From Methanomassiliicoccales archaeon (GTDB lineage: Archaea > Thermoplasmatota > Thermoplasmata > RBG-16-68-12 > SOIM01), in the NCBI GenBank assembly GCA_030593885.1, contig JAUVGH010000002.1, positions 21,922 to 85,921 on the forward strand: a stretch of DNA of 64,000 bases, written 5' to 3'. The position numbers were made by a program, and so were the translations under genes. How positions within the stretch are numbered: the first letter of the stretch is position 1; each line of letters starts with the position of its first letter. This document shows positions 21,101 through 59,573 of this stretch, piece by piece. The notes under the pieces were generated by a model. It was not told the DNA's origin and did not search any database. It saw only the letters and a list, made by a program, of their open reading frames with translations.

Positions 21101-24100
21101 AGGTAAAGGTGGGCACGCCGGACGAGACCTTGCTACGCAACGTGGCAATCCTGTACTACTCGGATGCCAATGAGAATCCGTACACACCAATTCAGGACAC
21201 AGCTGACGTGACAGTCACAGCGCCTGTCATGGAGTTCTCCAAGACGGCTGATGTCACAACAGCAGATCCAGACGATGAAATCACTTACACGATATCCTAC
21301 GAGAACGTTGGGACCGGAGTCGCCAAGAACGTAAAGATAACCGACACCATACCAGCCGATGTTATCTTCGTGAGCTCGACTCCGAACTACACCAGCGTCA
21401 GTGGGAACACATATACATGGGACATTGGGACTCTTAATCCAGGAGATAGTGGGACCATAACGATAGTGGTGAAGGTCAAGGTGGGAACGCCTGACAAGAC
21501 CCTGCTGAGGAATGTGGCCACACTGGACTACTCGGACGCTAACGAGAACCCGTACGACCAGATGACCGACCACGTGGATGTGACCGTCACAGCGCCTGTC
21601 ATGGAGTTCTCGAAGTCAGCGGACGTTACTACCGCAGACCCTGACGACCCGATCGTGTACACCATAACGTACGAGAACGTCGGGACAGGAGACGCGTCCA
21701 ACGTGAAGATCACAGACACCATACCAGCCGATGTTGTGTTCGTGAGCTCGACCCCGGCCTACACCAGCGTCAGTGGGAACACGTACACGTGGGACATTGG
21801 GACCCTGGCCGCTGGCAGCGGAGGAACAATCACCATCAACGTGAAGGTGAAGGTCGGAACACCTGATGAGACCCTGCTGGAGAACGTGGCGACACTCTAC
21901 TACGCCGACGCGAACGGCAACGACTACACTCCCTTGACAGACAACGCGTTCGTTAAGGTCACAGCACCAGTGATGGAATTCTCCAAGACAGCGGACGTAT
22001 CAACTGCAAACCCAAGCAGTCTGATAACCTACACCATAACCTACAAGAACATTGGAACCGGAGACGCCACGAGTGTCCTGATCAGTGATGAGATACCGGA
22101 GGATGTGGAGTATGTCTCTTCAACGCCCACGTACACCATGAAAGTGAATCTGACATACATCTGGAACATCGGAGACGTTGCCGCGGGAACGGGAGGAAGC
22201 ATCACCTTGGTCGTCAAGGTGAAGGCCTACACACCCGACAAGACGCTGCTCCACAACGTGGCCACCCTTTACTATGAGGATGCGAACGGCAACGGCTACA
22301 CCCCAATCGAAGACCACGCGGACGTCATAGTGACCGCACCTGATATGAGGTTGGTGAAGAGCACAGACGTGACAACTGCAGATCCAGGCGACGAGTTTGT
22401 CTACACGATCCACTACGCGAATGTTGGAACGGGAGTGGCGACACACGTGACAATCGTCGACACCATACCGGCTGACACGACCTTCATATCTTCGACGCCT
22501 GCTCCGGACAGCGTTGTCGGCAACGTGTACACCTGGTACATCGGAACCGTGAATCCAGGCGATTCTGGAGACATCTTCATAACCGTTAGAGTGAACCTCT
22601 TCACACCTGACAAGACACTGCTGCGAAACGTGGTCACGCTGGACTATGACGACGCGAACAGCAACCCATACCCGACGCTGAGAGACAGCGTTGATGTCAA
22701 GGTGACCGCTCCTGTCATGGAGTTCTCCAAGTTCGCAAACGTATCCACTGCTGATCCCGGTGACCTGATAACCTACACTATCACTTACGACAACGTCGGC
22801 ACTGGCAAGGCAACCGAAGTGAAGATCACAGACACTCTGCCTGTGGGGGTGGAGCTGGTCTCCGCCACGCCATGGTACACCTCGGTATCCAACAGGACCT
22901 ACACGTGGGACATCGGCGACCTCGGGCCTGGCGAAGGAGGTACCATAATCATTGTCGTCAAGGTGACGATAGGAACGGCGGACAGGACTTTGCTGCACAA
23001 CTCGGCGACCCTGTACTACGCGGACGCCAACGGAAATGACTACCCACCCATGGAGGACAGCGCGGATGTGACCGTAACAGCACCTGTCATGACCTTCTCC
23101 AAGTCGGCAGATGCCACTACGGCTGATCCAGGCGACCAGATAACCTACACCCTGACCTACAAGAACATCGGCACAGGCTGGGCATCATTGGTTGTGATTG
23201 TGGATACTATTCCTGATGATGTGGTCTTTGTCAGCTCTAGCCCGATGTATGACAGTGTCAGCGGCACTGAGTATACCTGGAATCTGGGCGACGTCGCACC
23301 TGGCACTGGCGGAACCATAACGATCATCGTGAAGGTCAAGGTGGGCACACCAGATGAGACACTCTTGCACAACGAGGCGACTCTGGACTACTCTGATGCC
23401 AATGGGAACTTCATCGAGAGATTGAGCGATTATGCGGACATCACAGTGACCGCGCCCATAGTGCGCATCACCAAGTCGGCTGACGTCTCAGAGGCTGACC
23501 CAGGTGACATGATCATCTACACGATAACCTACGAGAACGTCGGAACGGGCTGGGCAACGCTCGTAGAGATCGTGGACACCATACCTGCAGAAACCACATT
23601 GGTCGCCACCAATCCACGGTACACCAGTATGAGTGGGAATGATTACGTCTGGTCCATTGGCAATCTGGCTCCTGGCGACGGTGGCACCATTGAGATCAAG
23701 GTCATTGTGAATCCTGGTACGCCGGACAAGACCTTGTTGCATAATGTGGTCACTTTGGATTGGGCAGACCGCAACGGGAATTACTATCCGCAGTTGAGCG
23801 ACTACGCAGACGTTATTGTCACAGCACCTGTGATGACCCTTGAGAAGTCCGCGGGAGACACTGAAATTGCCGCATACGTGGTGGCAGACTTCAGGCTGAG
23901 AATCGCCGGAGAAAAGTGGCACGATGTGAGACTCAACCTCTACAGCGGCAACCAGTCAGTGAGATTCGCGTCAATCACACGATATCCGGGCTCTCCCGAC
24001 GACCAATCCGTCACCCTGTATGACGTGAAGATAAATCTCCTTGCCAACTTCACGGCCGTCATCGAATACACACCATCGGACGACCCGATCAACGGCCAAA

Positions 24101-25860
24101 TCTGGGGTGACAATCCCTGCTGGCTCATCCTCACCTTCCCGGATGGGAAGGATATCAGGCTATTCCACAACTTCAATGTGAGGCATAACGAGACTTGGAT
24201 ATGGGTCATCGACGATTGGGCTAAGATCCTAAGGCACGCGCCAATAATCTACGAAGCAACCATTCCATACACGATCAACTACGAGAACATAGGGACGGGC
24301 GACGCCACCGGTGTGGTCGTCACGGACACCCTCCCGGTCGGCAGCGTGATCCTTGATTACAATCCGCTATACGACTCGTGCGTGGACAATGTGTGCACCT
24401 GGAACATCGGTGATGTCGCTTCAGGAGAAAGCGGCACCATAACGATCAACATCAGCTACGTCTTCGATATCGACGGCGAGGAGTTGATCAACGAGGTCAC
24501 ACTGGACTACTCGGATGCAAACGGCAACTTCATTGAGCAACTCTACGCTTCCGCGTCTTCAACCCTCATCAAGCCTGAGCTTTGGAGTTCACCCAAGGAC
24601 TACTATGGCGGCGAGTCAGGACCGATATTCACGTCTGGTACGAACATCCCGCCTGAGGCGGTCATCAGCTCTCCTGTTGATGGTTCCTACCACTATGTCG
24701 AGGATATGATCCTGTTCGATGGATCCGCCAGCTCTGACGATGTGTGGATAATGTCCTACCTTTGGGACTTCGGAGATGGGGGTGTAAGCACTGATGTCAA
24801 TCCACAGCATATGTACGCCATGGCTGGAATATACGCGGTCAGGCTGACCGTTACCGATGACATGGGAGACGTCTCCACCGCCTATGTGCTCCTTATCATC
24901 AGAGAGAAGAGCCTGAGCGCAGTCATCGAGCAACCTACCAAAGAGATTATCGCTGAGGGGACGACCCTAGAATTCTCGGGCAGAGCGGTATACGAAGGTT
25001 ACCAGGATGTGTTCTACTGCACCTGGGACTTCGGAGATGGAGCCATCTCAGAGGGCTGCACAACAACGCATCTCTACGGCAATCAGGGCACGTACACCAT
25101 CACACTGACGGTGTTCGATGTGTTTGGCCATACGTCTTCTGATTCCACGGATATAACCGTGCTCAACGTCAGGCCGCAGGTCAAGGTTGCGAAGAAGATG
25201 CATGGAGCCGAGGGAACCCCGATGTACTTCACCGCAGCTGTGACCGATAAGGGGACGGACGACCTCACTCTGACCTGGGACATGGGAGACGGGACGGTTG
25301 TTGTTGGCAATGACTTCTACTACACCTACCTGGACGATGGGAAGTACGTGGTGAGATTGACAGTGGATGATGGGGACGGTGGAGTTGTGGTCAAGATCAT
25401 CACGGCGACCATACAGAACCTCAATCCGAAGGCATCTTTCGACGGCAACAAGCTCGGACACGTGCACGAACCTGTGTACCTATCGGCCGGCGTTTCGGAC
25501 GCAGGAGCGCAGGACACGTTCTCATTTGTCTGGGACATGGGCGACGGGACGATCATCGAGGGGACTCACGAACCAGTTCACATCTACCATCAGAGCGGCA
25601 TCTACATGGTGACGCTGACTGTGACCGACGAGGACGGTGCGCAGGGAGTCTCAGTTCTGAAGGTGCATGTGATCGAGACACTGGATTCGACGGTGAACCG
25701 CCCAACGTCATGGAAGGACACCGCGACCCCGATGGTAATCACGGCAGACGGGAAGATCGCCGACGACTTCATGCCACTTGCAGCTCTTGTGCTGGTGATC
25801 CTGAGCACGCTCGCACTGGCTGCTGGTACATACGTCTGGTACAACTCAAAGAAAGAGTAA
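12187..25860 (+). CDS. Giant cell-surface protein (4557 aa): signal/TM, N-terminal Asp-rich domain, about 30 tandem DUF11 (conserved repeat domain) units, 4 PKD domains, C-terminal TM anchor
   Basis: Uninterrupted 13.7 kb ORF. SD 'aggtga' sits before the ATG. The ~123-aa unit 'APVMTISKTADVTTADPGDEITYTITYKNTGTGxATNV..DTIP...FVSS.P.Y.S.SGNTYTW.IG...G.SGTITI.VKVK.GTPD.T.L.N..TLDY.DANGNPY' repeats about 30 times. PKD-like 'WDFGDG...TVTD' occurs four times near the C-terminus. Final hydrophobic helix plus 'NSKKE' tail. Confidence 0.9.
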   Translation: MRRGSKVVTALDKIKSTVMVTLLVLGTFVLAVSVPGEEPPDIPGWPNDGDWINYTYRGERIRDWEDKPYENDPTHGIANVQPKAVDIASGVDKSGGNAASNPGNYTSVQYLYDDVDGDSDGCSDIDDDWLFLRQRIAGDPRHGGQYAYKAYHWDILLEVDGDQWSEFVVDLNGGNGYYKFGTVGVYYSDTDDYEYDPDNDWVWLQPATGKKNLFTNARLIDYDDDDDDNDQWWIEYKVPITAFTDRDDNQLLCADTDFLLFFSTSASATNPLQKDWMGEFVFGEPANITVVKTVEEDIVKPGDTLHYKIYYNNTGEFNAGNVWINDTIPDYTTFKESNPNYNSSSGQTYRWHFTDVEPGNHTIYLNVTVDTDVPDGEVLRNVAVLNYTDTDDNELPGSEDETENPVAGPFLKMAKEVDVATADPGDVLHYEIIMQNTGGGGAYNVTVNDTIPEHTTFDSSYPDYDSVDGRTYTFIIDKIAGKTNFTIFLNVTVDAYTDDGTVLVNYATADYRDANGNVYERLYDWANVTVTAPIMDVTKIADVTTADPGDEITYTLTYDNTGTGQASDVVIEDTIPEHTTFVSSTPNYDEVDGRTYTWNIGLVDGGDSGTIAITVKVDAGTANGTILTNDVTLDYDDANGNPYPQETDSVDVTVIAPILTLSKTASVAEANPGDTITYSINYENTGSGKATNVYVNDTIPNEVTFVTSSPAYTSKSGNTYIWAIGDVCAGCSGIITIQVTVNAAVPDETVMRNTVTLDYSDANGNPYAQLSDYVDVTVTAPIMTITKVADVGTADPGDEITYTLTYENTGTGDAGGVIVKDTIPTDTIFVSSNPAYSSKTGNTYTWNVGTVTAGSSGTITIVVKVKAGIADETVLLNTAVLYYEDVNGNPYPTKEDTAEVTVTSPIMTVSKTADVTTADPGDEINYTLSYDNTGTGNAKNVKIIDTLPSDVTFVTSYPAYSSASGNVYTWNVGDVCAGCGGEIYVIVEVNAGVADGSVLRNYVKMEYTDNNGNSLPDETDYVDVTVTAPVMTITKTADVTTADPDDQVVYTLFYENTGTGDATNVVVKDTIPSEVDFVSSTPTYDSQSGNVYTWNVGDVGAGENGTITITVKVKAYTPDKTVITNYVTLDYDDANGNPIPQESDSVDVTITAPVMTISKTADVSEADPGDEITYTITYTNSGTGLATDVVVTDTIPADTTFVSSTPTYDSQSGNTYTWNVGDVSAGSSGIITVVVKVKAGTPDETVLTNTVTLDYDDANGNPQAQQNDSVDVTVTAPIMTVSKVADVATADPSDQITYTIEYKNTGSGDATNVKVVDTIPADTTAVSATPMWDSSSGDDFTWNIGSVSARGSGTITFVVKVDVGTPDGTLLRNWATLSYADANGNGLPDEKDYADVTVTAPIMTISKIADVSTADPSDIITYTLTYENNGNGEATNVWVNDTIPADTDFVSSTPGYTSMSGNTYTWFIASVAANSDGTITVKVKVKVGTPDGTVLRNTVTLDYGDANGNPQGQESDYVDVLVTAPIFSFSKTADVVEADPGDWINYTLYYKNTGTGDATNVYINDTIPSDTTLESTSPAYTSSSGDTYIWNLGTVTAGEEGNIIITVTVDAFTPDGTLLRNTATLDYSDASGNPYPQMDDYADVTVTGPEMTIRKVADVTTADPGDDITYTITYKNNGAGTATDVVVEDTIPADTVFVSSTPTYDSQSGNTYTWLIGDVCGGCDGTIEIVVRVKAGTPDKTVLTNTVTLNYDDANGNPQSEENDSVNVVVTAPVMTISKVADVTTADPDDEITYTITYKNTGTGEATNIYINDTIPPDTTYVSSNPTYTSASGDTYTWFIASLGAGQSGTIELVVKVDVGVPDKTLLRNQVTLDYADANENPLPRQSDKADVTVTAPVFTFSKKADVSTADPGDEIVYTIEYENTGTGEATDVYVNDTIPDDVDFVSSNPAYTSVSGNTYTWFMASVAAGTGGTITIVVEVKAGIPDETLLRNTATLDYSDANGNPYPQMKDCADVRVTAPIMTITKTADVSTADPDDEITYTLAYENKGTGEATDVYINDTIPADVDWVSSNPGYTSVSGLTYTWFFASLGAGTSGTITIVVKVKVGTPDGTILTNDVTLDYSDANGNPLPQESDSVNVKVTAPIVTIAKTADVSTADPGDEITYTIYYKNTGTGEATDLYINDTIPTDTEYVSSSPVYDEVNGLTYTWKIASLAAGADGTITLVVKVKVGTPDETLLRNRVTLDYSDANGNPYPQKDDTEDVVVTAPVMAINKVANVATADPGDFVNYTISYENSGTGIATNVWINDTIPADTTFKESTPNYDSVSGDTYTWFFSTVAAKSSGEIHIKVQVDAGTDDGTILRNTVTMDYADANENPYTQLSDYVDVLVTAPVLNLTKSADVSTADPSDTITYTVEFENSGTGNATDVYVNDTIPTDVEFVSSNPVYLSKSGNTYTWYWAVVAANTTVTITIVVKVKTYTPDETVLHNIATLDYADANGNPYPTEMAWADVTVTAPILEITKTADVTTADPGDEITYTIYYKNTGTGEATDVYINDTIPDDVDFVSSSPNYTSVSGKTYTWFFSSLGAGVDGTITITVEVKVGTPDETLLRNLGTLDFSDANGNPYPRLRDYADVDVTAPVMEFSKTADVATADPDDEITYTLTYKNIGTGVATNVKITDTIPGDVVFVSSTPNYTSVSGNTYTWDIGTLNPGDSGTITIVVRVEVGTPDETLLRNFATLDYSDANENPYEQMKDYADVDVTAPVMEFSKTADVTTADPDDEITYTITYKNTGTGVATNVKITDTIPGDVVFISSTPNYTSVSGNTYTWDIGTLNPGDSGTITIVVKVKVGTPDETLLRNVAILYYSDANENPYTPIEDHADVDVTAPVMRFSKTADVTTADPDDEITYTITYENVGTGDAANVKVTDTIPADVTFVSSTPTYTSVSGNTYTWDIGTVTAGSSGTITITVKVKVGTPDETLLRNVAILYYSDANENPYTPIQDTADVTVTAPVMEFSKTADVTTADPDDEITYTISYENVGTGVAKNVKITDTIPADVIFVSSTPNYTSVSGNTYTWDIGTLNPGDSGTITIVVKVKVGTPDKTLLRNVATLDYSDANENPYDQMTDHVDVTVTAPVMEFSKSADVTTADPDDPIVYTITYENVGTGDASNVKITDTIPADVVFVSSTPAYTSVSGNTYTWDIGTLAAGSGGTITINVKVKVGTPDETLLENVATLYYADANGNDYTPLTDNAFVKVTAPVMEFSKTADVSTANPSSLITYTITYKNIGTGDATSVLISDEIPEDVEYVSSTPTYTMKVNLTYIWNIGDVAAGTGGSITLVVKVKAYTPDKTLLHNVATLYYEDANGNGYTPIEDHADVIVTAPDMRLVKSTDVTTADPGDEFVYTIHYANVGTGVATHVTIVDTIPADTTFISSTPAPDSVVGNVYTWYIGTVNPGDSGDIFITVRVNLFTPDKTLLRNVVTLDYDDANSNPYPTLRDSVDVKVTAPVMEFSKFANVSTADPGDLITYTITYDNVGTGKATEVKITDTLPVGVELVSATPWYTSVSNRTYTWDIGDLGPGEGGTIIIVVKVTIGTADRTLLHNSATLYYADANGNDYPPMEDSADVTVTAPVMTFSKSADATTADPGDQITYTLTYKNIGTGWASLVVIVDTIPDDVVFVSSSPMYDSVSGTEYTWNLGDVAPGTGGTITIIVKVKVGTPDETLLHNEATLDYSDANGNFIERLSDYADITVTAPIVRITKSADVSEADPGDMIIYTITYENVGTGWATLVEIVDTIPAETTLVATNPRYTSMSGNDYVWSIGNLAPGDGGTIEIKVIVNPGTPDKTLLHNVVTLDWADRNGNYYPQLSDYADVIVTAPVMTLEKSAGDTEIAAYVVADFRLRIAGEKWHDVRLNLYSGNQSVRFASITRYPGSPDDQSVTLYDVKINLLANFTAVIEYTPSDDPINGQIWGDNPCWLILTFPDGKDIRLFHNFNVRHNETWIWVIDDWAKILRHAPIIYEATIPYTINYENIGTGDATGVVVTDTLPVGSVILDYNPLYDSCVDNVCTWNIGDVASGESGTITINISYVFDIDGEELINEVTLDYSDANGNFIEQLYASASSTLIKPELWSSPKDYYGGESGPIFTSGTNIPPEAVISSPVDGSYHYVEDMILFDGSASSDDVWIMSYLWDFGDGGVSTDVNPQHMYAMAGIYAVRLTVTDDMGDVSTAYVLLIIREKSLSAVIEQPTKEIIAEGTTLEFSGRAVYEGYQDVFYCTWDFGDGAISEGCTTTHLYGNQGTYTITLTVFDVFGHTSSDSTDITVLNVRPQVKVAKKMHGAEGTPMYFTAAVTDKGTDDLTLTWDMGDGTVVVGNDFYYTYLDDGKYVVRLTVDDGDGGVVVKIITATIQNLNPKASFDGNKLGHVHEPVYLSAGVSDAGAQDTFSFVWDMGDGTIIEGTHEPVHIYHQSGIYMVTLTVTDEDGAQGVSVLKVHVIETLDSTVNRPTSWKDTATPMVITADGKIADDFMPLAALVLVILSTLALAAGTYVWYNSKKE
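13047..24560 (+). repeat. Tandem array of about 30 in-frame ~369-bp coding repeats (DUF11 units) inside the giant gene. Central copies (about 20050-21600) are near-identical at the nucleotide level.
   Basis: Recurrent nucleotide strings (e.g. 'gatccagatgatgagataacctacac', 'ggcaatacgtacacctgggacat') and near-identical successive protein units. Confidence 0.85.
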
Positions 25861-26018: not shown

Positions 26019-29000
26019 TTGATGTTGGGCAGAAATAGGGGAGCAACTAGGATTCTAGCTATAGCCATAGTCCTCATTCTGCCGGTCCTTGGGGTCATGG
26101 ATCTGAGCAGGAGCAATCTGTGGACTCTCGAGGAGACCTTCGAAAGCACATTCGATCTGATGTATGCAGCGATGGGATTCACGTGGACCACCCAGACGAT
26201 CGATACGAGGGGGAGCATGGGGCCGTACACGTCCTTGGAGCTTGATTCCAACGAGCTGCCCCACATCAGTTATTACGATGAGACCAACGGTGACCTGAGA
26301 TATGTTGATCGATTTGGCAGTGGATGGTTGATAACCATAGTAGACAGCGCCGGAGATGTCGGGTTGTACACGTCCCTGGCATTGGACCAGTTCGACCGTC
26401 CCCACATCAGCTACTACAAGAAGAGCACAGGGGACCTGAAATATGCCTACCACGACGGGAACGCCTTCCAGATCACCACCGTGGACCATCTCAGGAACAC
26501 TGGATTGTTCACATCCATGGTGCTGGATTCCAGCGACACGCCATACATCAGCTACTACGAGAAGGACCTGGGGGCGCTGAAGTTCGCAGTTCTTAATGGG
26601 ACCGATTGGGAAACATACTATCTAGACGACGTGGGAGATGTGGGCCTCTACACCTCAATCGCTCTGGACCCGGATGAGAATCCCAGTATCAGCTATTACG
26701 ACAAGACCCGTGGTGATCTGAAGCTCATAAGGTTCAACGGCACCGCTTGGCAAACTCCGAGAATCATAGATGCCGGCGGTGACGTCGGATTGTATGCCTC
26801 ACTGGCAATAGGCAACAACGGGGTACCGCACATAAGTTACTTCGACAAGACCAAAGGTGACCTGAAGTTCGCCGTTGCCCAGCAATGGTTCATGGACATC
26901 AAGACGATCTCCTCTGCTGGCGTCAGGGGGATGTACACATCCTTGGTCCTGGGTTCCGACGGTCTGGCCCACATAAGCTACTACGATAAGACGAACGGGG
27001 ACCTGAGGTACGCATTTGGAATGGGCTTCGACTGGCAGGATATGGACGTTCACATGGACGGGGACACCGGCCTCTACACTTCCATAGAGGTCAATTCAGA
27101 GAACCGTCCTCTCATCAGCTACGTCGGGCCGTCCTTCGAAGGGTCCGCCGACCCGGCTGTGGGCGTGGACTGCGATAGGGGTGACAGCTGTTCTTACGTT
27201 CACATGGTCTGGGTGGAGACATATCAGACCTCTAGGAACGCCTACCAGCGAGTATACTACCAGAGGAGCGATGACAAGGGGAAGACCTGGGACATGGATA
27301 TTCGTCCAATCTCGGGTGAATGGAGACATTTCGCCAGTTTTCCCAATATGCTGATGTCCGGCCCGCCTGTGATTTCGGTCATCGGGAAGACAATCCATGT
27401 CATCTGGGCCCATGAGTTCACAGTAGGGTTCGCCAGCAGGGGCGGGATATTCTACCAGCGCAGCGATGACAACGGGGACACCTGGCTTCCCAGCGAGGTT
27501 CGAGTCGATGATGTCCCCTCTTCTGCTCCATCCCCAGCGCTCCCTGAGTCCGTTTCCATGTACGCCGACGAGGACTACATCAACGTGGTCTGGATGTCCG
27601 ACCTGAAGATCTATAGCACGCGTTCACTTGTGAGCGAGGCCCGCACTTCAAGTGGATGGGTCACGGAGTTCGGGAAACACAGTTCTGTGGTCGCTGACGT
27701 GAGCGGAAGAACCTTCATAGCCTCGTTCGACGAGAGCAGAGGGGATCTTCTGATATCTGCATCCGGAGGTTTCGGAGAGTTCGATACCGAGGTAATCGAC
27801 TGGACGGGGATCGTGGGCCAGCACACGTCAATCGCCCTGGGACCCGGCACCTATCCCTACCCCAGCATTGCGTATTACGATGAAACAAATGGAGACTTGA
27901 GATTCGCAGAGTGGAACGGGTCACATTGGCTGATCAGCACTGTGGACTCGGTCGACGACGTGGGACATTACGCTTCTTTGAAGATTGATTCCAATGCGCT
28001 TGCCCATATTGCATATTACGATCTAACGAAGGGAGAGCTCAGATACGCCAGATGGGACGGGATGTCATGGCTTCTGGATATCGTGGACGACTTCGGGGAC
28101 GTCGGGCAGTACGCATCGTTGGACCTGGATCGAGATGATCTTCCATCCATCAGCTATTACAATGCCACCGGAAAGGAACTGAAGTTCACCAGCTGGAACG
28201 GCACCGCCTGGAACAATGAGATGGTGGACGATTCCGCAGACGTCGGCAAGTACTCCTCTCTTGCGGTGGATTCGGAACATCATCCTCACATCAGCTATTA
28301 TGATGAGACCAACAAGCATGTCAAGTACGCGTTCCACAACGGGACGGCCTGGGAGATCGAGCTCGCAGATGGTACGGACCTGGTGGGAGAATACACATCC
28401 ATCGCGTTGGAATCTGGGAATGTTCCGTTCATTAGCTATTATGACATGGGGAACACAAACCTCAAGCTGACTCGCAAATCACCATCTGGCTGGATGTCCG
28501 AGGTCCTGGACGATGATGGGAACGTCGGCAAGTACACATCGGTAGCCACAGACATGTTCAATGAAGTTTACATCAGCTATTATGACGAGACCAACCAGAG
28601 ACTCAAGTTGTACAGCACCAGCCTCGGATGGCGCCGACAGGCAGTGCAAAGGGACGAGATGATCTCATATCCGCTCTACGGCGAGGCCAGGGATAAGTAC
28701 CGGACCGCGTCCACACCAGACATTGATGGTGATGAAGGAAGGGTGCATGTGGTCTATTCTGAGAGCATATCGCCGAAAGGGGACCTCAAGTTCGCTCAAT
28801 GGAACGGGACCCAGTGGAGGACCGAGACCATCGATGAAGAGGGAATGGTGGGGATGGACACCAGCTTGGTCGTCGATTCTTTCGACCGACCCCACATCTG
28901 TTACTTCGACCAGTCCAATACCCGACTGAAATACACCCACTGGACCGGTACCGAATGGCAGATAGAGGTGGTGGACGATGGCATTGATGTGGGACGGGAA

Positions 29001-31271
29001 TGCTCGATTGCACTTGACTCCAAGGACCAGGTCCACATTACTTACCAGGATGTGGGGAACGGACCTCTGAAGTACGCCAAGAAGTTGGACGGTGTATGGA
29101 ATGTCGGGATAGTCGGGGATGTGGCTCCTGCAGCAGGCTGGTACAACTCGCTGGCCATTGACAGCAACGATCAACCCCACGTGGCTTACCTCAGCTGGGC
29201 CAGCTTCGCAATCAAGTACACATACTTCGATGGGAAGAAGTGGACGTTCATTCATGTGGACAGCAAGGGATGGAAACAGGTCTCTTTGGCGCTTGATTCC
29301 AACGATCAGCCTCACTTGGCGTACAACGACAGGACCGAACTTGGTGCGAAGTACACTTACTGGGATGGTTCCACCTGGGTGATGCAGATTGTCGACGATT
29401 CCTCTCCTTGGGTGGGCACATACGCGAATCTGGCATTGACCGAGGATGACAAGCCGGTAATGTCGTATTATGATGAGACCCGAGGCGATCTGAAGTTCGC
29501 CAGACCCGAGTATCCGGCTTCGAACACGGCCAAAGTGGACTTCGTCCACAGCGTCGGGATGTACAATTCATTGGAGTTGGATGACTTCGGGGCAGCCCAC
29601 ATCAGCTACTACGACAATGAAGCGGGCGAGCTGAGGTATGCAAAATGGGTACCTGGGGGCTTCAGTGTGGAAACGGTGGATGCATCTGGGGACGTGGGTA
29701 TGTACACCTCTCTTGAGTTGAATTCTCTTGGCTATCCGATGATCTCGTACTATGACGAATCGGGCGGAAATGGGTTGTTCCACACGGAAGGTGCAACAGA
29801 CGGGAGCGAGGCGTGGACGGAAGATGTCCAATTGAACGAGAGAGTCAAGAGGGACATAGGATCGCCTGAAGTAGAGGTCGAGAAGAAGACGGTCCACGTG
29901 GTCTGGGACGAGTTCAATCTGTACTCGAGACAGTCCAACATCTTCTACAAGAGGAGCAATGACAACGGAACGGCCTGGCCGTATCCAGATATCGCCATCA
30001 ATGATGATACGACCACTGGACAGATATTCAGTCAGAATCCCAGCATGCAGGTGAACGGTGCGACCATCGAGGTTGCGTGGGAACGCAGCGTGAGCGTGGG
30101 GATAGGACTGTCCAATGAGGAATTGATATATGACATTAACAGGGCGAACGGAGGCCCTTCTGGCTGGGGTCCGGACCGAGTAGTGTCCCCCAATCCGCCG
30201 ATCTTCCCGCGATTCAAGGCGTACCAGGCGTCCATGAGGACGGTTGGCAACGACAGGCACATGGTCTGGATATTCTGGGGCGGGGTCACGGTACAAGAGA
30301 TCGAGTACTTCGGGATATCGGATGATCTGTTGGAAGTCGGAGACTTGACCGAGGGCAGGAAGGGGGCCTCCAGCGTTTTCGTGATAGACCCATTGACCCT
30401 CAGGAATGAGATAATCGTGGTGGGAGGCAAGAACCAATCTGGATTCCTGGACAGGGTCACGAAGGTCGATGCGAGGACCGGGGCCGAACAGGATTACTGC
30501 AACCTCCCAACTGGTCTGGCCTATACGTCGGTTGTCTGGGACGACAAGGATTCGGTGTTCATCTTCGGAGGACTTTCGAGCACTGGAGCTGAGGCGAGTA
30601 TTCTGAGAGTGAATCTGTCGACCGCGGTCCCAGGAGACATGTGCACGGACACAGGGTTTACACTTGCTTCTGGGAGATACGGCACTTCAGCAGTTTACGA
30701 TGAATCGACCGATACCGCGTACGTGTTCGGGGGTACAGATGGTGCTGGGACATACTCCGCGGAGATAGTGAAATGGCCCAGATTGGGCGTGCCAGTAGGT
30801 TTCGGTATTCTGCCTTCCGAGAGGGCTTTCACTTCGGCAGTCTGGGATCACGATAGAAACAAGGCTTTCGTTTTCGGAGGCCTGGGTCAATTGGGACATC
30901 TGGACGAGATAGTTGAGTTCAGGGACGTTGGTGTACCAGATGTTGCCGTTCTTTCCAATGCTAAGCTGCCAACGGCAAGGTCCGCCACGTCAGCTGCATA
31001 CGACGGAACTTACGCATACATCATCGGCGGCGTATCGAACACCGGAGCCATCTCCGAGATCGTCAGGTTCAACCCGAGAGGCGACTGGACGGCAGGCGTG
31101 ATATTGGCCTGTACTGAGCTCCCTCAAGGACTGGAGAACGCATCGGCATCGATGTCAGCAAGCGCCAGATCGCACATCGGCGGGATATTCGTGGTGGGCG
31201 GTGAGAACGAGACTGCCATCATGTTAGATGTCTGGAGCTATAAGCCGGCCTACTGGGGGTACCTCGACTAG
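26019..31271 (+). CDS. Secreted 1750-aa repeat protein: about 25 copies of a ~45-aa 'HISYYDxTNGDLKYA...W....VD..GDVGxYTSLAxD' repeat, 3 BNR/Asp-box motifs, C-terminal Kelch-like repeats
   Basis: N-terminal TM/signal. Highly regular 45-aa periodicity through aa 60-1230. Asp-boxes 'RSDDKGKTW', 'RSDDNGDTW', 'RSNDNGTAW'. Kelch-like 'FIFGG/YVFGG/FVFGG/YIIGG' blades at the C-terminus. Confidence 0.85.
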   Translation: MMLGRNRGATRILAIAIVLILPVLGVMDLSRSNLWTLEETFESTFDLMYAAMGFTWTTQTIDTRGSMGPYTSLELDSNELPHISYYDETNGDLRYVDRFGSGWLITIVDSAGDVGLYTSLALDQFDRPHISYYKKSTGDLKYAYHDGNAFQITTVDHLRNTGLFTSMVLDSSDTPYISYYEKDLGALKFAVLNGTDWETYYLDDVGDVGLYTSIALDPDENPSISYYDKTRGDLKLIRFNGTAWQTPRIIDAGGDVGLYASLAIGNNGVPHISYFDKTKGDLKFAVAQQWFMDIKTISSAGVRGMYTSLVLGSDGLAHISYYDKTNGDLRYAFGMGFDWQDMDVHMDGDTGLYTSIEVNSENRPLISYVGPSFEGSADPAVGVDCDRGDSCSYVHMVWVETYQTSRNAYQRVYYQRSDDKGKTWDMDIRPISGEWRHFASFPNMLMSGPPVISVIGKTIHVIWAHEFTVGFASRGGIFYQRSDDNGDTWLPSEVRVDDVPSSAPSPALPESVSMYADEDYINVVWMSDLKIYSTRSLVSEARTSSGWVTEFGKHSSVVADVSGRTFIASFDESRGDLLISASGGFGEFDTEVIDWTGIVGQHTSIALGPGTYPYPSIAYYDETNGDLRFAEWNGSHWLISTVDSVDDVGHYASLKIDSNALAHIAYYDLTKGELRYARWDGMSWLLDIVDDFGDVGQYASLDLDRDDLPSISYYNATGKELKFTSWNGTAWNNEMVDDSADVGKYSSLAVDSEHHPHISYYDETNKHVKYAFHNGTAWEIELADGTDLVGEYTSIALESGNVPFISYYDMGNTNLKLTRKSPSGWMSEVLDDDGNVGKYTSVATDMFNEVYISYYDETNQRLKLYSTSLGWRRQAVQRDEMISYPLYGEARDKYRTASTPDIDGDEGRVHVVYSESISPKGDLKFAQWNGTQWRTETIDEEGMVGMDTSLVVDSFDRPHICYFDQSNTRLKYTHWTGTEWQIEVVDDGIDVGRECSIALDSKDQVHITYQDVGNGPLKYAKKLDGVWNVGIVGDVAPAAGWYNSLAIDSNDQPHVAYLSWASFAIKYTYFDGKKWTFIHVDSKGWKQVSLALDSNDQPHLAYNDRTELGAKYTYWDGSTWVMQIVDDSSPWVGTYANLALTEDDKPVMSYYDETRGDLKFARPEYPASNTAKVDFVHSVGMYNSLELDDFGAAHISYYDNEAGELRYAKWVPGGFSVETVDASGDVGMYTSLELNSLGYPMISYYDESGGNGLFHTEGATDGSEAWTEDVQLNERVKRDIGSPEVEVEKKTVHVVWDEFNLYSRQSNIFYKRSNDNGTAWPYPDIAINDDTTTGQIFSQNPSMQVNGATIEVAWERSVSVGIGLSNEELIYDINRANGGPSGWGPDRVVSPNPPIFPRFKAYQASMRTVGNDRHMVWIFWGGVTVQEIEYFGISDDLLEVGDLTEGRKGASSVFVIDPLTLRNEIIVVGGKNQSGFLDRVTKVDARTGAEQDYCNLPTGLAYTSVVWDDKDSVFIFGGLSSTGAEASILRVNLSTAVPGDMCTDTGFTLASGRYGTSAVYDESTDTAYVFGGTDGAGTYSAEIVKWPRLGVPVGFGILPSERAFTSAVWDHDRNKAFVFGGLGQLGHLDEIVEFRDVGVPDVAVLSNAKLPTARSATSAAYDGTYAYIIGGVSNTGAISEIVRFNPRGDWTAGVILACTELPQGLENASASMSASARSHIGGIFVVGGENETAIMLDVWSYKPAYWGYLD

Positions 31272-55426: not shown

Positions 55427-55476
55427 CGATACCGATATCGTTATAACTCAACCAGATATTATAATTTGACCCGAAT

Positions 55477-55597
55477 GCCGAGGTAGCTAAGCCCGGTTCA
55501 CGGCGATGGCCTCGAGTGTTGTCCAGACCGTAGAAAAGATGACCGCGACAGCCATTGGTGCTTCTGCACCGCGGGAGTTCGAATCTCCCCCTCGGCG
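55477..55597 (+). tRNA. tRNA-Ser (anticodon CGA) with a 33-nt intron at the canonical 37/38 position (55517-55549)
   Basis: Hand-folded cloverleaf. Acceptor GCCGAGG/CCTCGGC. 3-bp D stem with a GG-containing D loop. Anticodon stem ATGGC/GCCAT with loop CT-CGA-G, then the intron, then A. Long variable arm (GGTGC-TTCT-GCACC). T arm GGGAG-TTCGAAT-CTCCC. Discriminator G73. No encoded CCA. Confidence 0.7.
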
Positions 55598-55809
55598 TTT
55601 AACCAAAGGCTAAGATTCATTTTGCGAACATGCACTACTCGATGAAAGATATGTTTGACCTCCTCATACTGCGTCAAACTCGAGTCTCATGTGTCTAATG
55701 CATGTCCAATCCGGGTGAAGATTATCATATCAGAGAAGTCGTGATGCAAATGTCTTAATAGCTCAAGAGTATTTATGGCTAGAATTTCGCCAGTCGTGGG
55801 GGAGCGTAC

Positions 55810-56313
55810 TTGATAAACAAGAACTATGAGGAAATTGTTCTAAGAGCAAAAGAGGCAGTGCACGATTTGGAGGAGCCTTTCAGGAGCATAGCTTTCAAAG
55901 AAGTATTGAATGATCTGATGAGAGAGTCGGTGGAGTCTCTCCCACCATTGGAGCGTGCTGAAGGAATCGACTCGTCGGGAGGGTTCTTGGAGTCCCACGG
56001 TATTCAGACCTTGAGACAGTTGATAAACCTAACCAAACCACAATCCCATCCTGCCAAGACTCTCGTCATAGCCTACTACTCAATGCAAGCCAAGGGCCTG
56101 GACGTGTTTCAGACGGAGTCCATTATAGATGGATATCGAGAGGCCCTTATGAAACCTCCAACAAACCCAAGCGATATCATCTATAAGAACAAGAAGAAAG
56201 GATTCTTCATGAACATGGAGGATGAAGCTGGAGAATCAGGCTGTAGCATCACTGACCAAGGTATCAAAGAGATAGAAAGCAGGATTACTAAGGCCATGGA
56301 AGAGAAAGATTGA
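55810..56313 (+). CDS. Hypothetical protein, paralog of 57245..57751 (unknown family)
   Basis: C-terminal ~75 aa align with the other paralog ('V.A.Y....G..F.T......Y.EA...PTN.....I...KKG.........G..IT..G...ES'). Confidence 0.5.
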   Translation: MINKNYEEIVLRAKEAVHDLEEPFRSIAFKEVLNDLMRESVESLPPLERAEGIDSSGGFLESHGIQTLRQLINLTKPQSHPAKTLVIAYYSMQAKGLDVFQTESIIDGYREALMKPPTNPSDIIYKNKKKGFFMNMEDEAGESGCSITDQGIKEIESRITKAMEEKD

Positions 56314-56867
56314 ATTGTACGAAATTCCTAGACGATATAATTTGATTGCATTCCATATCCACAGATTGGTCGTAGATTTCTTCTGGAGTATTGCCACATC
56401 ATGAAGACTAGCTGGTTGAAGCATGATTGAAGATGTAACTCTCGATACAGGGAGATCTAAGGGAGCTTTAGTTTAGAATCGCTTCACTATATTTGTGCCA
56501 AACCCTCATCCGTGGTCATATCCGCAGGGGTCCATCCGAATCTCATTGAACATACTTTGAATACTGACACTGGCATAATCTTCACTCATCTATTCCCGCA
56601 ATAGCCAAAGATGTATAGCCCCAAAGAACAGGAGAGAGGCTCTCATTCTAATGAAACTGATTCCGGATTCAGGGATGTTTCATGCACGATGGACAGGTTA
56701 TGTGAATATCTCTCACAAAGTATGTGGAATCCAATTGTGGGTCGGGTCAGAGAAGGACCAGTCCCGAGATCCATTGTTCGTCTCGGCATCACTTTCACTC
56801 AACCCTACCCAAAATGACTTTATATCGTGGATGTGATAATACGTTGTTCAAAACATGAGGCATTAGG

Positions 56868-57248
56868 ATGAACACGAAGAAAATCCAGTCCTTATTCGTT
56901 GATGAAAAGGAAGTCGGCGAGGAAATCCTGTACGAAGCGATTTCGCCCTTCATCAGATTTGGTAAGGAATCCAACAGCGTGATATTTACTCCGGAATACT
57001 ATGAACTCGGGAACCGGGAAAAAGTTCTTGTATACCTACTGGCCCTCAAAGCAGCTGGTTTCCTCGGGCTAACCTCGGTTGGCGAATCTGCCTCCCCAAA
57101 GGCAATCTCAGCGGCGACTGGAGTCACATACAACTCGATCAAGCCTATTCTTTCTGGACTCGCGAAGAACGGTTTGCTGGCAAGAGAGGGTGGTAGGTAC
57201 TCCGTCCCGAATCATAACATCTTGAGGATCAAGGAGATGATGTCTTGA
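56868..57248 (+). CDS. Winged helix-turn-helix transcriptional regulator (MarR/ArsR-like)
   Basis: C-terminal 'PKAISAATGVTYNSIKPILSGLAKNGLLAREGGRYSV' is typical of HTH plus wing. Confidence 0.55.
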   Translation: MNTKKIQSLFVDEKEVGEEILYEAISPFIRFGKESNSVIFTPEYYELGNREKVLVYLLALKAAGFLGLTSVGESASPKAISAATGVTYNSIKPILSGLAKNGLLAREGGRYSVPNHNILRIKEMMS

Positions 57249-57751
57249 ATGAGCGGATTGAAAGAATGAAGAAAGTGGTCTCAGCTGCGAAGGAGGTCTC
57301 CGAATCAATCGAAGAATCTTCCCAGAAGGATGTTGCCCTTGCAGAGGTTCTTCGCAAGATGCTCGACTTGGAGTTCCCCCTTCCAGGAAGGAAGGACATT
57401 GTTGCCGAAACAAGACTCGAAGACACTCCTGCCGTAGTGGAATCCGATGTCTCGAGAATCTCTATCGGAGAATACTTGATAGAGAATGACCTGAAAACCC
57501 ATACGGATATTGTCCTGGCTATGGCGTACTTTCTCCTGAAGAACAGGAATCAGGTTGAATTCACAAGTGCAGATTTGAATGCCCTATACGAGGAGGCTCG
57601 ACATCCGAAGACAAACATCAATCTGGCGATTATCTCTAACATTAAGAAGGGCCTCATGGTTGAGAGAGGAAAGAAGGAGGGGTACAAGCTCTTCTCCATT
57701 TCAATGACTGGAGAAAGATATGTTGAAAGTAATTTCAGTTTTCCAAAGTGA
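57245..57751 (+). CDS. Hypothetical protein, paralog of 55810..56313; translationally coupled to the wHTH gene
   Basis: ATGA overlap with the upstream gene. Paralogy as described for 55810..56313. Confidence 0.5.
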   Translation: MNERIERMKKVVSAAKEVSESIEESSQKDVALAEVLRKMLDLEFPLPGRKDIVAETRLEDTPAVVESDVSRISIGEYLIENDLKTHTDIVLAMAYFLLKNRNQVEFTSADLNALYEEARHPKTNINLAIISNIKKGLMVERGKKEGYKLFSISMTGERYVESNFSFPK

Positions 57752-57763
57752 CGGGGGCTATCT

Positions 57764-58549
57764 TTGACCACATCACCTCTACTAAGGAACGCAGTAGAAT
57801 CTCTCGAACATGGCCTGGATCACTACTCTAGAAACACTGGCCTGGATCGGAAATTCGCGATTCTCCATATAGATCAGGCTATCGAGCTCATACTGAAGGA
57901 AGCAGTACGCTCGCTGGGTCTGTCGATCTACCGTAAGGACAGAAAGACGACCATTGGCCTCCACGAAGCTCTAGATATTCTCCAAGACAATGGTGTTGCT
58001 GTTCAGGAAAGACCAGACCTAGAGCTTCTTCACGATGAGAGAAACAGTATTCAACACACGAATTCCACCCCAGATGAGGATACGACTGTATTCTATGTTG
58101 AGACTGTACTGAGGTTCACTTCTCAATTCCTGCCCAATCAGCTTGGTGCGAATTTAGAGGACATGATGTCCCAGAAGGATTATGAGGAGATCTATGGGAC
58201 ATTCGAGGACAGAGATGTAGAGTCGAAGATGCAATCCCTCCTAGAGTCATCAGCCAAGAACTCAATTCTTGACACGGCTTCATCCATTGTCTCAGCATCG
58301 ATTTGCCTGGAACTCCTCCTGAGACATAGACTCCCAGAGACTATCGAGAATGTCGATCAAATGACCATTGAAGAACTACTTGGGCTAGCCGGTGAAACTG
58401 GAGTGTTGAACGGTGGAAGTCAAGCATTCGCTCGGGATTTGCTAGCTGTCAGGAATAGAGTCATGCATGAGGGGTACAAGCCGTCGACTGGGAACGCAGT
58501 TGACTTCTACCATTTCGTGAAGAGGCTGGTAGAGAAGGATTCTGGCTAG
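57764..58549 (+). CDS. Putative tandem-HEPN RNase-like protein (two R-N-x3-H motifs)
   Basis: 'LLHDERNSIQH' (aa 88-98; nt 58040-58057) and 'LLAVRNRVMHEG' (aa 226-237; nt 58451-58468) both fit the HEPN Rx4-6H motif with the usual Asn after Arg. Predicted alpha-helical. Confidence 0.45.
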   Translation: MTTSPLLRNAVESLEHGLDHYSRNTGLDRKFAILHIDQAIELILKEAVRSLGLSIYRKDRKTTIGLHEALDILQDNGVAVQERPDLELLHDERNSIQHTNSTPDEDTTVFYVETVLRFTSQFLPNQLGANLEDMMSQKDYEEIYGTFEDRDVESKMQSLLESSAKNSILDTASSIVSASICLELLLRHRLPETIENVDQMTIEELLGLAGETGVLNGGSQAFARDLLAVRNRVMHEGYKPSTGNAVDFYHFVKRLVEKDSG

Positions 58550-58925
58550 TCCTTTGGCATTCCGGCCTCTATTCCCGTCCTATGAGGCCTGTAAAAGAAC
58601 ATCCCCAACATTGAGCTAGGATTCTTATGTCAAAGAGGTGCCCTAGCGAAATGGGTTATTAGTCAAACACTCACCTTTGGAGGGGGGGGAGTCGCAGGAT
58701 GATGTGTTTCGGCAAGACAGCTATTGCAGGAGACTAATGTCTCAGAAAACGATGAGGTTATGGGAATGAAGCCAAAGGCATTCGAAATACTCTCGGACCT
58801 TCTCCAGCAGGTAAGAGAGAATCAGCTTAAGAATACGAGATGATTCGAACCTTGGCTATTCATCTCCCCCCGGCGTAATTCCTTCAATGTTCGACCTTCT
58901 CCCAGAATCAAGCTCGAAAAACAAC

Positions 58926-59195
58926 TCAAAACAGCTTGGAGAAGTCATCATAGACGTTCTTTCTGTGTCCAATGAACAACACGATCACTCTGTTCTCTTC
59001 TTCATCAATCTCATATATCGCCCTGTAGTCCCCGATCCTCAAGGTCCGGAAGTCGGAATACCTCAAGCGTTTGCCTCTTCGCTCTGGATGATCCTCCAAT
59101 TCCTCCACTCTGCTCTTAATCCTCGCTCTTAAGTCCTTATCTAACTTGGAAAGAAACCTGGTAGATTTGGGGTGAAGAAGGACCTTGAAACTCAT
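58926..59195 (-). CDS. RelE/ParE-family toxin
   Basis: 89-aa protein with RelE/ParE-like features ('...RIGDYRAIYEIDEEENRVIVLFIGHRKNVY'). 4-nt overlap with the upstream RHH gene. Confidence 0.75.
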   Translation of the reverse strand: MSFKVLLHPKSTRFLSKLDKDLRARIKSRVEELEDHPERRGKRLRYSDFRTLRIGDYRAIYEIDEEENRVIVLFIGHRKNVYDDFSKLF

Positions 59196-59413
59196 TCGAT
59201 TTCCTCAAGAGGCACGAGGATCTCGGGCTTCTCCCTCGCCTCCTTACTCCTTTCGACCAGCATCTGGTAGAACTCGCGTGTCTTCTCACGTTCCTCATAC
59301 AGAGCGACAATCGTCTTGATCGCGTCGCTTCTGCTCTTGAACCTGCCTCTGGACACCCATCGGTCAATGTCCTTCACGAGGTCTTCTGGCATTCTCAGTT
59401 GGACCTGGACCAT
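59192..59413 (-). CDS. Ribbon-helix-helix (CopG-like) antitoxin
   Basis: 'MVQVQLRMPEDLVKDIDRWVSRGRFKSRSDAIKTIV' is an RHH fold. It lies upstream of, and overlaps, the toxin gene. Confidence 0.7.
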   Translation of the reverse strand: MVQVQLRMPEDLVKDIDRWVSRGRFKSRSDAIKTIVALYEEREKTREFYQMLVERSKEAREKPEILVPLEEIE

Positions 59414-59573
59414 TATCTATCACTGTAAACAGAATTGTTTACAAAGTACTTCAACCTTTCTTTGGGGTTCTCACACGTGTAAACAGGAAGCTGGCCCGAG
59501 AAGATCCTGTGGAGAGATATCATTCACAGGTGGACTGGCTTTCGAATCTCCTACACGGCGTTCCAGAAAAGAA

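Follow-up and report, generated by a model that had tools for sequence, protein, structure and literature searches.

HEPN ribonucleases (RNases) act as executioners in immune and toxin systems, e.g., Cas13, Csm6, HepT, RnlA, and RAZR, and their silencing is a central mechanistic question. In this study, a cassette encoding a small tandem-HEPN protein of 261 amino acids (aa) and a winged-helix partner of 168 aa was analyzed in a stretch of 64,000 nucleotides (nt) from a Methanomassiliicoccales archaeon, i.e., positions 21,922 to 85,921 of contig JAUVGH010000002.1. The whole stretch is referred to as the window, and the cassette occupies positions 56868-58549 of it. The first-pass annotation, which was made from the sequence alone, had proposed a defense operon that could not be matched to any described system, and likewise none was found in PADLOC, Pfam, NCBIfam, or PHROGs.

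The closest described relatives of the 261-aa protein by sequence are in the HEPN assemblage of HEC-08, RAZR, Ishtar1/2, and the PADLOC candidates PDC-S19 and PDC-S64, to which it also belongs. HEC-08, RAZR, and Ishtar are experimentally validated defense RNases with fused sensor domains and without a partner gene, and the catalytic Rx4H motif is required for defense by HEC-08 and RAZR. The DUF3644 and DUF4145 defense proteins are single-gene systems with a zinc-finger or beta-rich sensor, whereas a second HEPN domain and a separate upstream winged-helix gene are found here. In the type VII system HepT/MntA, the HEPN toxin gene is adjacent to a minimal nucleotidyltransferase gene, but no NTP_transf_2 or Polbeta domain was found in the four proteins of this locus. 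Because the partner is a winged-helix protein and the operon has no nucleotidyltransferase, neutralization by AMPylation is excluded.

In the type IX retron (Retron-Kva2), a winged-helix protein encircles and sterically blocks the active site of a HEPN dimer and relieves its toxicity (bioRxiv 10.64898/2026.07.14.738597). This mechanism is the one proposed for the 261-aa/168-aa pair. However, the retron HEPN protein has no canonical Rx4-6H motif, which the 261-aa protein has. Retron features were also not found, i.e., no reverse transcriptase (RT) among the matches of the island ORFs (open reading frames), no Rfam retron RNA, and no PADLOC retron model matching the four proteins. Cas13 and Csx1 (MJ1666) likewise have two HEPN domains per chain, with one composite RNase site possible. 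Unlike Cas13, Csm6, and Csx1, the 261-aa protein is small and consists of two HEPN domains only, without CARF domain or guide RNA, and neither a CRISPR-like repeat array nor an Rfam CRISPR repeat was detected in the window. The likeness to Cas13 or Csm6 drawn in the first-pass annotation is thus an analogy only. In AbiE, the winged helix-turn-helix (wHTH) antitoxin AbiEi is likewise a winged-helix partner of a toxin, and the partner domain studied here also occurs fused to AbiEii (P0078 and P0155). However, AbiEii is a nucleotidyltransferase toxin and not a HEPN protein, and the partner proteins had no reported match to an AbiEi family.

The genes of the locus and the domains of the HEPN protein are as follows.

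55810-56313, + strand: 167-aa distant paralog of the partner family, with a helical N-terminus and a C-terminal winged helix, 554 nt before the operon
56868-57248, + strand: 126-aa probable winged-helix protein, operon gene 1
57245-57751, + strand: 168-aa partner protein, proposed cognate antitoxin or regulator
57764-58549, + strand: 261-aa tandem-HEPN protein, predicted RNase effector
57764-58147, + strand: N-terminal HEPN domain (residues 1-128); motifs E41-x3-K45 (helix 2) and R93-N-x3-H98 (end of helix 3; nt 58040-58057)
58217-58546, + strand: C-terminal HEPN domain (residues 152-261); motifs E183-x3-R187 (helix 2) and R230-N-x3-H235 (end of helix 3; nt 58451-58468)

The positions of the four genes agreed with the first-pass annotation. 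Of the tight coupling described there, the 12-nt spacer between the 168-aa gene and the TTG start of the 261-aa gene at 57764 was right, but the upstream overlap is TTGA and not ATGA, i.e., the 168-aa gene has a TTG start at 57245 that runs into the TGA stop of the 126-aa gene (57246-57248). An alternative in-frame ATG of the 168-aa gene is located 21 nt downstream, at 57266, and is the start given by NCBI, which results in a 161-aa form. The four-gene arrangement was identical on three independent metagenome contigs, and a variant with 88% identity likewise has the partner gene, with the HEPN gene beginning 12 nt after it and again at a TTG.

In HEPN active sites, helix 3 ends in an Rx4-6H motif whose R is followed by a polar residue, and the helix-2 acid is typically found in E-x3-[KR] (PMC3710099). 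The Rx4-6H pattern alone proves little, because its loose form occurs five times in the 261-aa protein. The structure of the protein was predicted by AlphaFold2 with a mean local confidence (pLDDT) of 93 and a predicted template modeling score (pTM) of 0.88, using a 27-sequence alignment. The suspected HEPN fold was recovered, and the two R-N-x3-H motifs that had been pointed out were located at the helix-3 ends, i.e., R93-N-SIQ-H98 closes helix 83-99, and R230-N-RVM-H235 closes helix 217-236. The helix-2 acidic motifs are E41-LIL-K45 and E183-LLL-R187. Both domains therefore show the helix-3 Rx4-6H and helix-2 E-x3-[KR] features of the HEPN superfamily, to which the protein belongs by sequence and by structure.

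Conservation supported the same assignment. The residues E41, K45, R93, N94, Q97, and H98 were invariant across the 27 homologues, and among the eight tandem members of this alignment the second motif was RNxxxH in all but one, which has RSxxxH. The N-domain and C-domain profiles aligned to each other (hhalign, E=1e-4) with the motifs in register. In comparison with the 88% variant, the ratio of nonsynonymous to synonymous substitution rates (dN/dS) was 0.14 (N-domain) and 0.22 (C-domain), so both HEPN domains are maintained by purifying selection. Since fold, motif position, and conservation agree, the 261-aa protein is judged from sequence and model to be a true tandem HEPN, and the pTM indicates a confidently packed two-domain unit in the prediction.

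In Pfam, the N-domain type appears nearest to DUF3644 and the C-domain type nearest to DUF4145. DUF3644 was matched by 14 of the 27 family members at E<=0.01 (best 2.6e-8); the 261-aa protein itself had no Pfam match to it at E<=1 and reached E=0.015 with the PADLOC DUF3644 model. The C-domains of P0003, P0004, and P0038 reached 23-27 bits against DUF4145 (cut-off 23.1; E down to 4e-6), and that of the window protein had no Pfam DUF4145 match at E<=1. PDC-S19 and PDC-S64 matched the N-domain only (E~4e-10 on residues 6-136; model positions ~5-180 are covered by residues 5-164). These models have 339-357 residues, and their remainder has no counterpart in the 261-aa protein, so this is not a full-length match. 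Because the N-domain is related to the DUF3644/EC042_2821-type HEPNs, PDC-S19, and PDC-S64, the effector belongs to a known defense-linked HEPN assemblage. The 261-aa protein had no match in a sequence search of the PDB even at E<=10, and Foldseek against the PDB yielded neither a significant match nor one that spans both domains over the full length. In a quick neighbor-joining tree of N-domains, an archaeal single-HEPN group was nested among the tandem forms, so the second HEPN domain was lost or gained more than once. A 273-aa protein of the E. coli plasmid pEc631_2 (L051, NZ_CP040265.1 9144-9965) has a weakly similar N-terminal HEPN (34% over 99 aa), and its gene is located a few genes from an AIPR-family abortive-infection gene.

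The 168-aa partner protein begins with a helical hairpin, which a disordered linker (residues 47-69) connects to a winged helix at the C-terminus (residues 74-163). The partner family as a whole has this build, with a variable N-terminus, and is a family of winged-helix proteins. It had not been recognized in the first-pass annotation, and neither paralog of the window had a match in Pfam, NCBIfam, PADLOC, or PHROGs. An exhaustive profile search with the partner family nevertheless resulted in 2,311 clusters at E<=1e-3, with 857 of them reaching E<=1e-10, and most of the proteins have 130-170 aa; a word-indexed search had yielded few homologues. The paralogy proposed for the two ~167-aa proteins is real by sequence comparison, though distant (27% identity over 83 aa in BLASTP, E=1e-5). 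Each of the two is closer to third-party members, e.g., the 55810-56313 product to L007_161 (E=1.5e-11) and L004_185 (E=7e-10), and this product aligns across the C-terminal domain in the partner-family alignment A2. The 126-aa protein is probably also a winged-helix protein, to judge from sub-threshold but concordant HTH matches at residues ~53-119 (TrmB 0.008, HTH_Crp_2 0.014, and Rrf2 0.056) and weak PHROGs matches of HTH type (MarR, E=0.0014). Its 43%-identical orthologue takes the same operon position in the metagenome loci L007-L009.

The pairing of the two genes was surveyed in 39 HEPN loci, which were collected by a pattern scan of species-representative genomes and whose ORFs were then scanned by a hidden Markov model for the partner. 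The loci were mostly from bacterial metagenome-assembled genomes (MAGs) of Acidobacteriota, Verrucomicrobiota, Proteobacteria, Planctomycetota, and others. In 31 of these loci, the HEPN gene is immediately preceded by a partner-family gene in the same orientation, so the supposed operon-like unit is conserved. The same was found in 5/5 distinct metagenome contexts of HEPN homologues and in all of L001-L011. The exceptions were mostly truncated HEPN copies; copies are truncated in L043, L046, L047, L049, and L050. Because it is the sole constant partner of the HEPN family, the winged-helix protein is likely to be a cognate neutralizer or regulator and not a bystander.

The survey also covered the flanks of the module, with the nearest two ORFs per side. 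These neighbors were unrelated between loci, i.e., 140 Pfam families among 149 ORFs, and mostly housekeeping. The HEPN and partner pair therefore behaves as an autonomous two-gene cassette, and a mobile toxin-antitoxin-like cassette fits better than a resident of defense islands. The pair is compact and bicistronic, has the gene of a DNA-binding partner in front of that of a putative toxin, and moves independently of its neighbors, as is expected of type II-like modules in general. A neutralizer gene in the upstream position is the classical layout of type II antitoxins (PMC3710099). Only metagenome loci, i.e., L001-L005 and L007-L009, have an additional 126-aa-type gene and additional partner paralogs, and L007-L009 look archaeal from their HerA/NurA/Mre11 neighbors.

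Fusions of the partner domain were found as rare long proteins among the partner-family matches. The domain was fused to the AbiEii nucleotidyltransferase toxin in P0078 and P0155, to a Ymh-type HEPN (PF09509) in P0122, to a HEPN-like N-terminus in P0134, and to the 126-aa-type wHTH in P0186 and P0087. A split form was found in L052, where the partner is followed by a 127-aa N-type HEPN and then by a separate gene for a 122-aa C-type HEPN-like protein (hhalign 78.6% and E=1.7e-5 against the C-type domain; R/H lost). L041 is likewise split. These split forms support that N-type and C-type domains work together. In L055 (837-2950) and L056 (112-2547), a 126-aa-type wHTH, a partner, and a second partner paralog are followed by a 252-257-aa R-N-x5-H protein, and in L056 also by an HNH protein. 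No support was obtained for the 252-aa RNx5H protein as a relative of the tandem HEPN. Because these two loci carry an unrelated downstream protein, the winged-helix cassette may serve other effectors.

The cassette is located in a low-GC island. The GC content is 0.52-0.57 on both sides and 0.43-0.48 within ~55.6-59.6 kb of the window. The window is archaeal, with genes for Alba, Pus10, ribosomal protein L21e, Rpb4/RpoF, Sec61-beta, and SAMP2 and an intron-containing tRNA in the surroundings. The further features of the island are as follows.

55476-55598, + strand: tRNA-Ser(CGA) with a 33-nt intron (Rfam tRNA 38.4 bits, E=3e-5; ARAGORN with intron option)
58862-58876, + strand: possible second remnant of a tRNA 3' end, ATCTCCCCC-CGGCGT, 15/16 positions (local alignment score 25; weak)
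58926-59195 and 59192-59413, - strand: ParE-toxin/RHH-antitoxin (ribbon-helix-helix) pair (PF05016, E=4.7e-13; PF01402, E=7e-5)
59541-59562, + strand: right border resembling an attachment site, direct repeat of the tRNA-Ser 3' end at 19/22 positions (repeat family D1)

The tRNA-Ser(CGA) gene is the left border of the low-GC stretch, the GC content dropping from ~0.55 directly after it, and it is the probable integration target of the island. It is also the sole tRNA gene of the window, so the tRNA island of the first-pass annotation was an overstatement. The gene was picked up by a 14-kb Rfam scan in E-value mode (match at 55477-55597; 38.4 bits; gathering score 29); the whole-window Rfam gathering scan and default ARAGORN overlooked it, as it was hidden by the intron and by speed filters. 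The repeat at 59541-59562 was the top match in the window, with an alignment score of 29 above all 200 shuffles (max 27, z ~4.4), and coincides with the GC content rising back to ~0.53. The second-best tRNA 3'-end match, at 58862-58876, has a score of 25, which is inside the shuffle range (mean 20.5, sd 1.9, max 27). The two degenerate 3'-end copies are thus located ~3.3 kb and 3.96 kb downstream of tRNA-Ser, with the ParE/RHH pair between them, and suggest one or two successive integrations at this gene. From the low-GC stretch, the tRNA-Ser, and the repeat of its 3' end, the four genes and the ParE/RHH pair are placed in a ~4-kb remnant of one or two integrated elements. No integrase gene was recognized among the ORFs of the island (55.6-59.56 kb).

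The toxin-antitoxin pair named as a neighbor in the first-pass annotation is therefore present, i.e., ParE (PF05016) and RHH. The defense-type location read from it holds in part: the cassette is beside this pair in an integrated remnant, but the neighbors in other genomes are mostly housekeeping genes. A ParE-family toxin pair also adjoins the tandem-HEPN cassette in the unrelated metagenome locus L005 (10-479), which could be a coincidence or a shared toxin-antitoxin island. Between the 167-aa paralog gene and the operon there is a low-GC non-coding gap of 554 nt (56314-56867). No decayed HEPN, partner, or wHTH gene was detected in this gap or in the other intergenic stretches, and none of these stretches recurs elsewhere.

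As the interpretation of the locus, a toxin-antitoxin-like or abortive-infection-like module is somewhat favored, in which the HEPN protein acts as a single-chain pseudo-dimer RNase and the winged-helix proteins as neutralizer and regulator. The region of 55.6-59.56 kb would be a mobile-element remnant at tRNA-Ser carrying such a cassette. The effector is predicted to be a metal-independent HEPN endoribonuclease with a fused, diverged pair of DUF3644-like N-domain and DUF4145-like C-domain. Single-HEPN relatives would have to dimerize to form an active site, and in the 261-aa protein the two fused domains most likely pair as the equivalent pseudo-dimer, in a single chain. Binding and neutralization of the RNase may be the role of the N-terminal region and the linker of the 168-aa partner, and autoregulation of the operon that of its winged helix. 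The 126-aa protein and the 55810-56313 paralog would be accessory regulators of the same kind. When the partner is released or lost, i.e., by infection, stress, or loss of the element, the free RNase would cleave cellular or invader RNA, and growth would stop. A bolder version is rather doubtful, i.e., that the partner family is a promiscuous antitoxin or sensor module gating unrelated toxins (tandem HEPN, Ymh HEPN, and AbiEii) and represents a new abortive-infection system of archaea and bacteria. In this version, the 261-aa protein could be a minimal pre-assembled RNase with occlusion by winged-helix proteins as its sole control. These proteins, which in archaea come as two to four paralogs per array, might let go of the RNase when they bind nucleic acid of an invader.

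Several observations weigh against a toxin-antitoxin-like module. Tandem-HEPN genes without a partner gene were found in L027 (between recR and recO), L041, and L044, hence the partner is not obligatory for tandem forms. In two MAGs (L017 and L019), the partner ORF was broken and the HEPN gene intact. Barring errors of assembly, this would not be expected if the antitoxin were essential. Defense genes were a minority among the neighbors, with a few restriction-modification, PDC-S19, PDC-S41, RT, or mad matches. Phage records had no match to the HEPN family, and the plasmid search yielded nothing beyond two weak hits of the N-domain, both to a 273-aa hypothetical protein encoded on conjugative plasmids. 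The partnerless and broken-partner loci would also suit winged-helix proteins that act only as transcriptional repressors or sensors, in the manner of BrxR/CapW, and do not contact the RNase, with a tandem HEPN that is self-inhibited by its conformation and directly triggered by a component of the invader. This alternative is considered unlikely, although all three upstream proteins have DNA-binding folds, the N-domain is DUF3644-like and matches the single-gene candidates PDC-S19 and PDC-S64, and the DUF3644 or DUF4145 HEPN proteins HEC-08, RAZR, and Ishtar defend alone. Those characterized relatives have a fused sensor (zinc finger or beta-rich), whereas none is present in the 261-aa protein or in the single-HEPN relatives of 150-170 aa. 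The near-invariant adjacency, the tight or overlapping junctions, and the fusions to three toxin types are better suited to a physically interacting partner.

A further difficulty concerns the composite active site only. R/H are absent from the split C-type protein of L052 and from the C-domain of L044, so the second domain may be regulatory and not half of a composite site. The RNase could then dimerize through its N-terminal HEPNs, with the C-terminal HEPN as a regulatory, substrate-binding, or auto-inhibitory pseudo-enzyme. This is a less likely alternative, with which the faster evolution of the C-domain (dN/dS 0.22 vs 0.14) and the nesting of single-HEPN forms among tandem forms, as a sign that the C-domain is dispensable, are also consistent. 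However, the C-domain of the window protein and of most tandem homologues retains both E-x3-R and R-N-x3-H, and the predicted structure is a confidently packed two-domain unit (pTM as above). The partnerless tandems, the broken partners, and the C-type domains without R/H lend some weight to the readings with a regulator-only partner and with a non-catalytic second domain. It is very improbable that the 261-aa protein is a housekeeping HEPN for RNA processing or nucleotide binding with transcription factors adjacent by chance. Non-toxin HEPN proteins such as Las1 and MtlR are known (PMC3710099), and the neighbors in other genomes are often housekeeping genes, but the distribution is patchy (39 loci among the scanned species representatives, in unrelated phyla), the neighborhood beyond the pair is not conserved, truncated copies occur in the five loci listed above, and the window copy is in a low-GC integrated remnant beside ParE/RHH.

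The new points of this locus are the small dyad of DUF3644-like and DUF4145-like HEPN domains, the large uncatalogued partner family, and their tight pairing across bacteria and archaea. In the literature, of which coverage was incomplete, no description was found of the partner-HEPN pairing, of small tandem-HEPN proteins, or of the partner family. In the cassette, the place of a nucleotidyltransferase or fused sensor beside the DUF3644-like HEPN is taken by an uncatalogued winged-helix family, and there are fused, split, and single-domain forms of it. If the partner neutralizes the RNase, it would represent a new antitoxin family across many bacterial phyla and archaea, and the 261-aa and 168-aa proteins would be a compact model for the gating of a single-chain HEPN pair. 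It would also be a further entry in the sparse annotation of archaeal defense and toxin-antitoxin systems.

Upstream of the operon, a TATA-like TTTATAT was found ~46-52 nt before the ATG at 56868. The scan for sigma-70 promoters and terminators was uninformative, which was to be expected of an archaeon. An Rfam match to the archaeal C/D-box RNA sR44 at the junction of the 126-aa and 168-aa genes (57233-57290) was regarded as chance, with 22 bits against a gathering score of 45 and E=0.077. Elsewhere in the window, two giant ORFs were found on the + strand, i.e., 12187-25860 (4,557 aa) and 26019-31271 (1,750 aa), with a strong AT skew of 0.2-0.28. In the former, a 372-nt (124-aa) repeat occurs 5.3 times in tandem at 20084-22072, and both probably encode large repeat-rich proteins.

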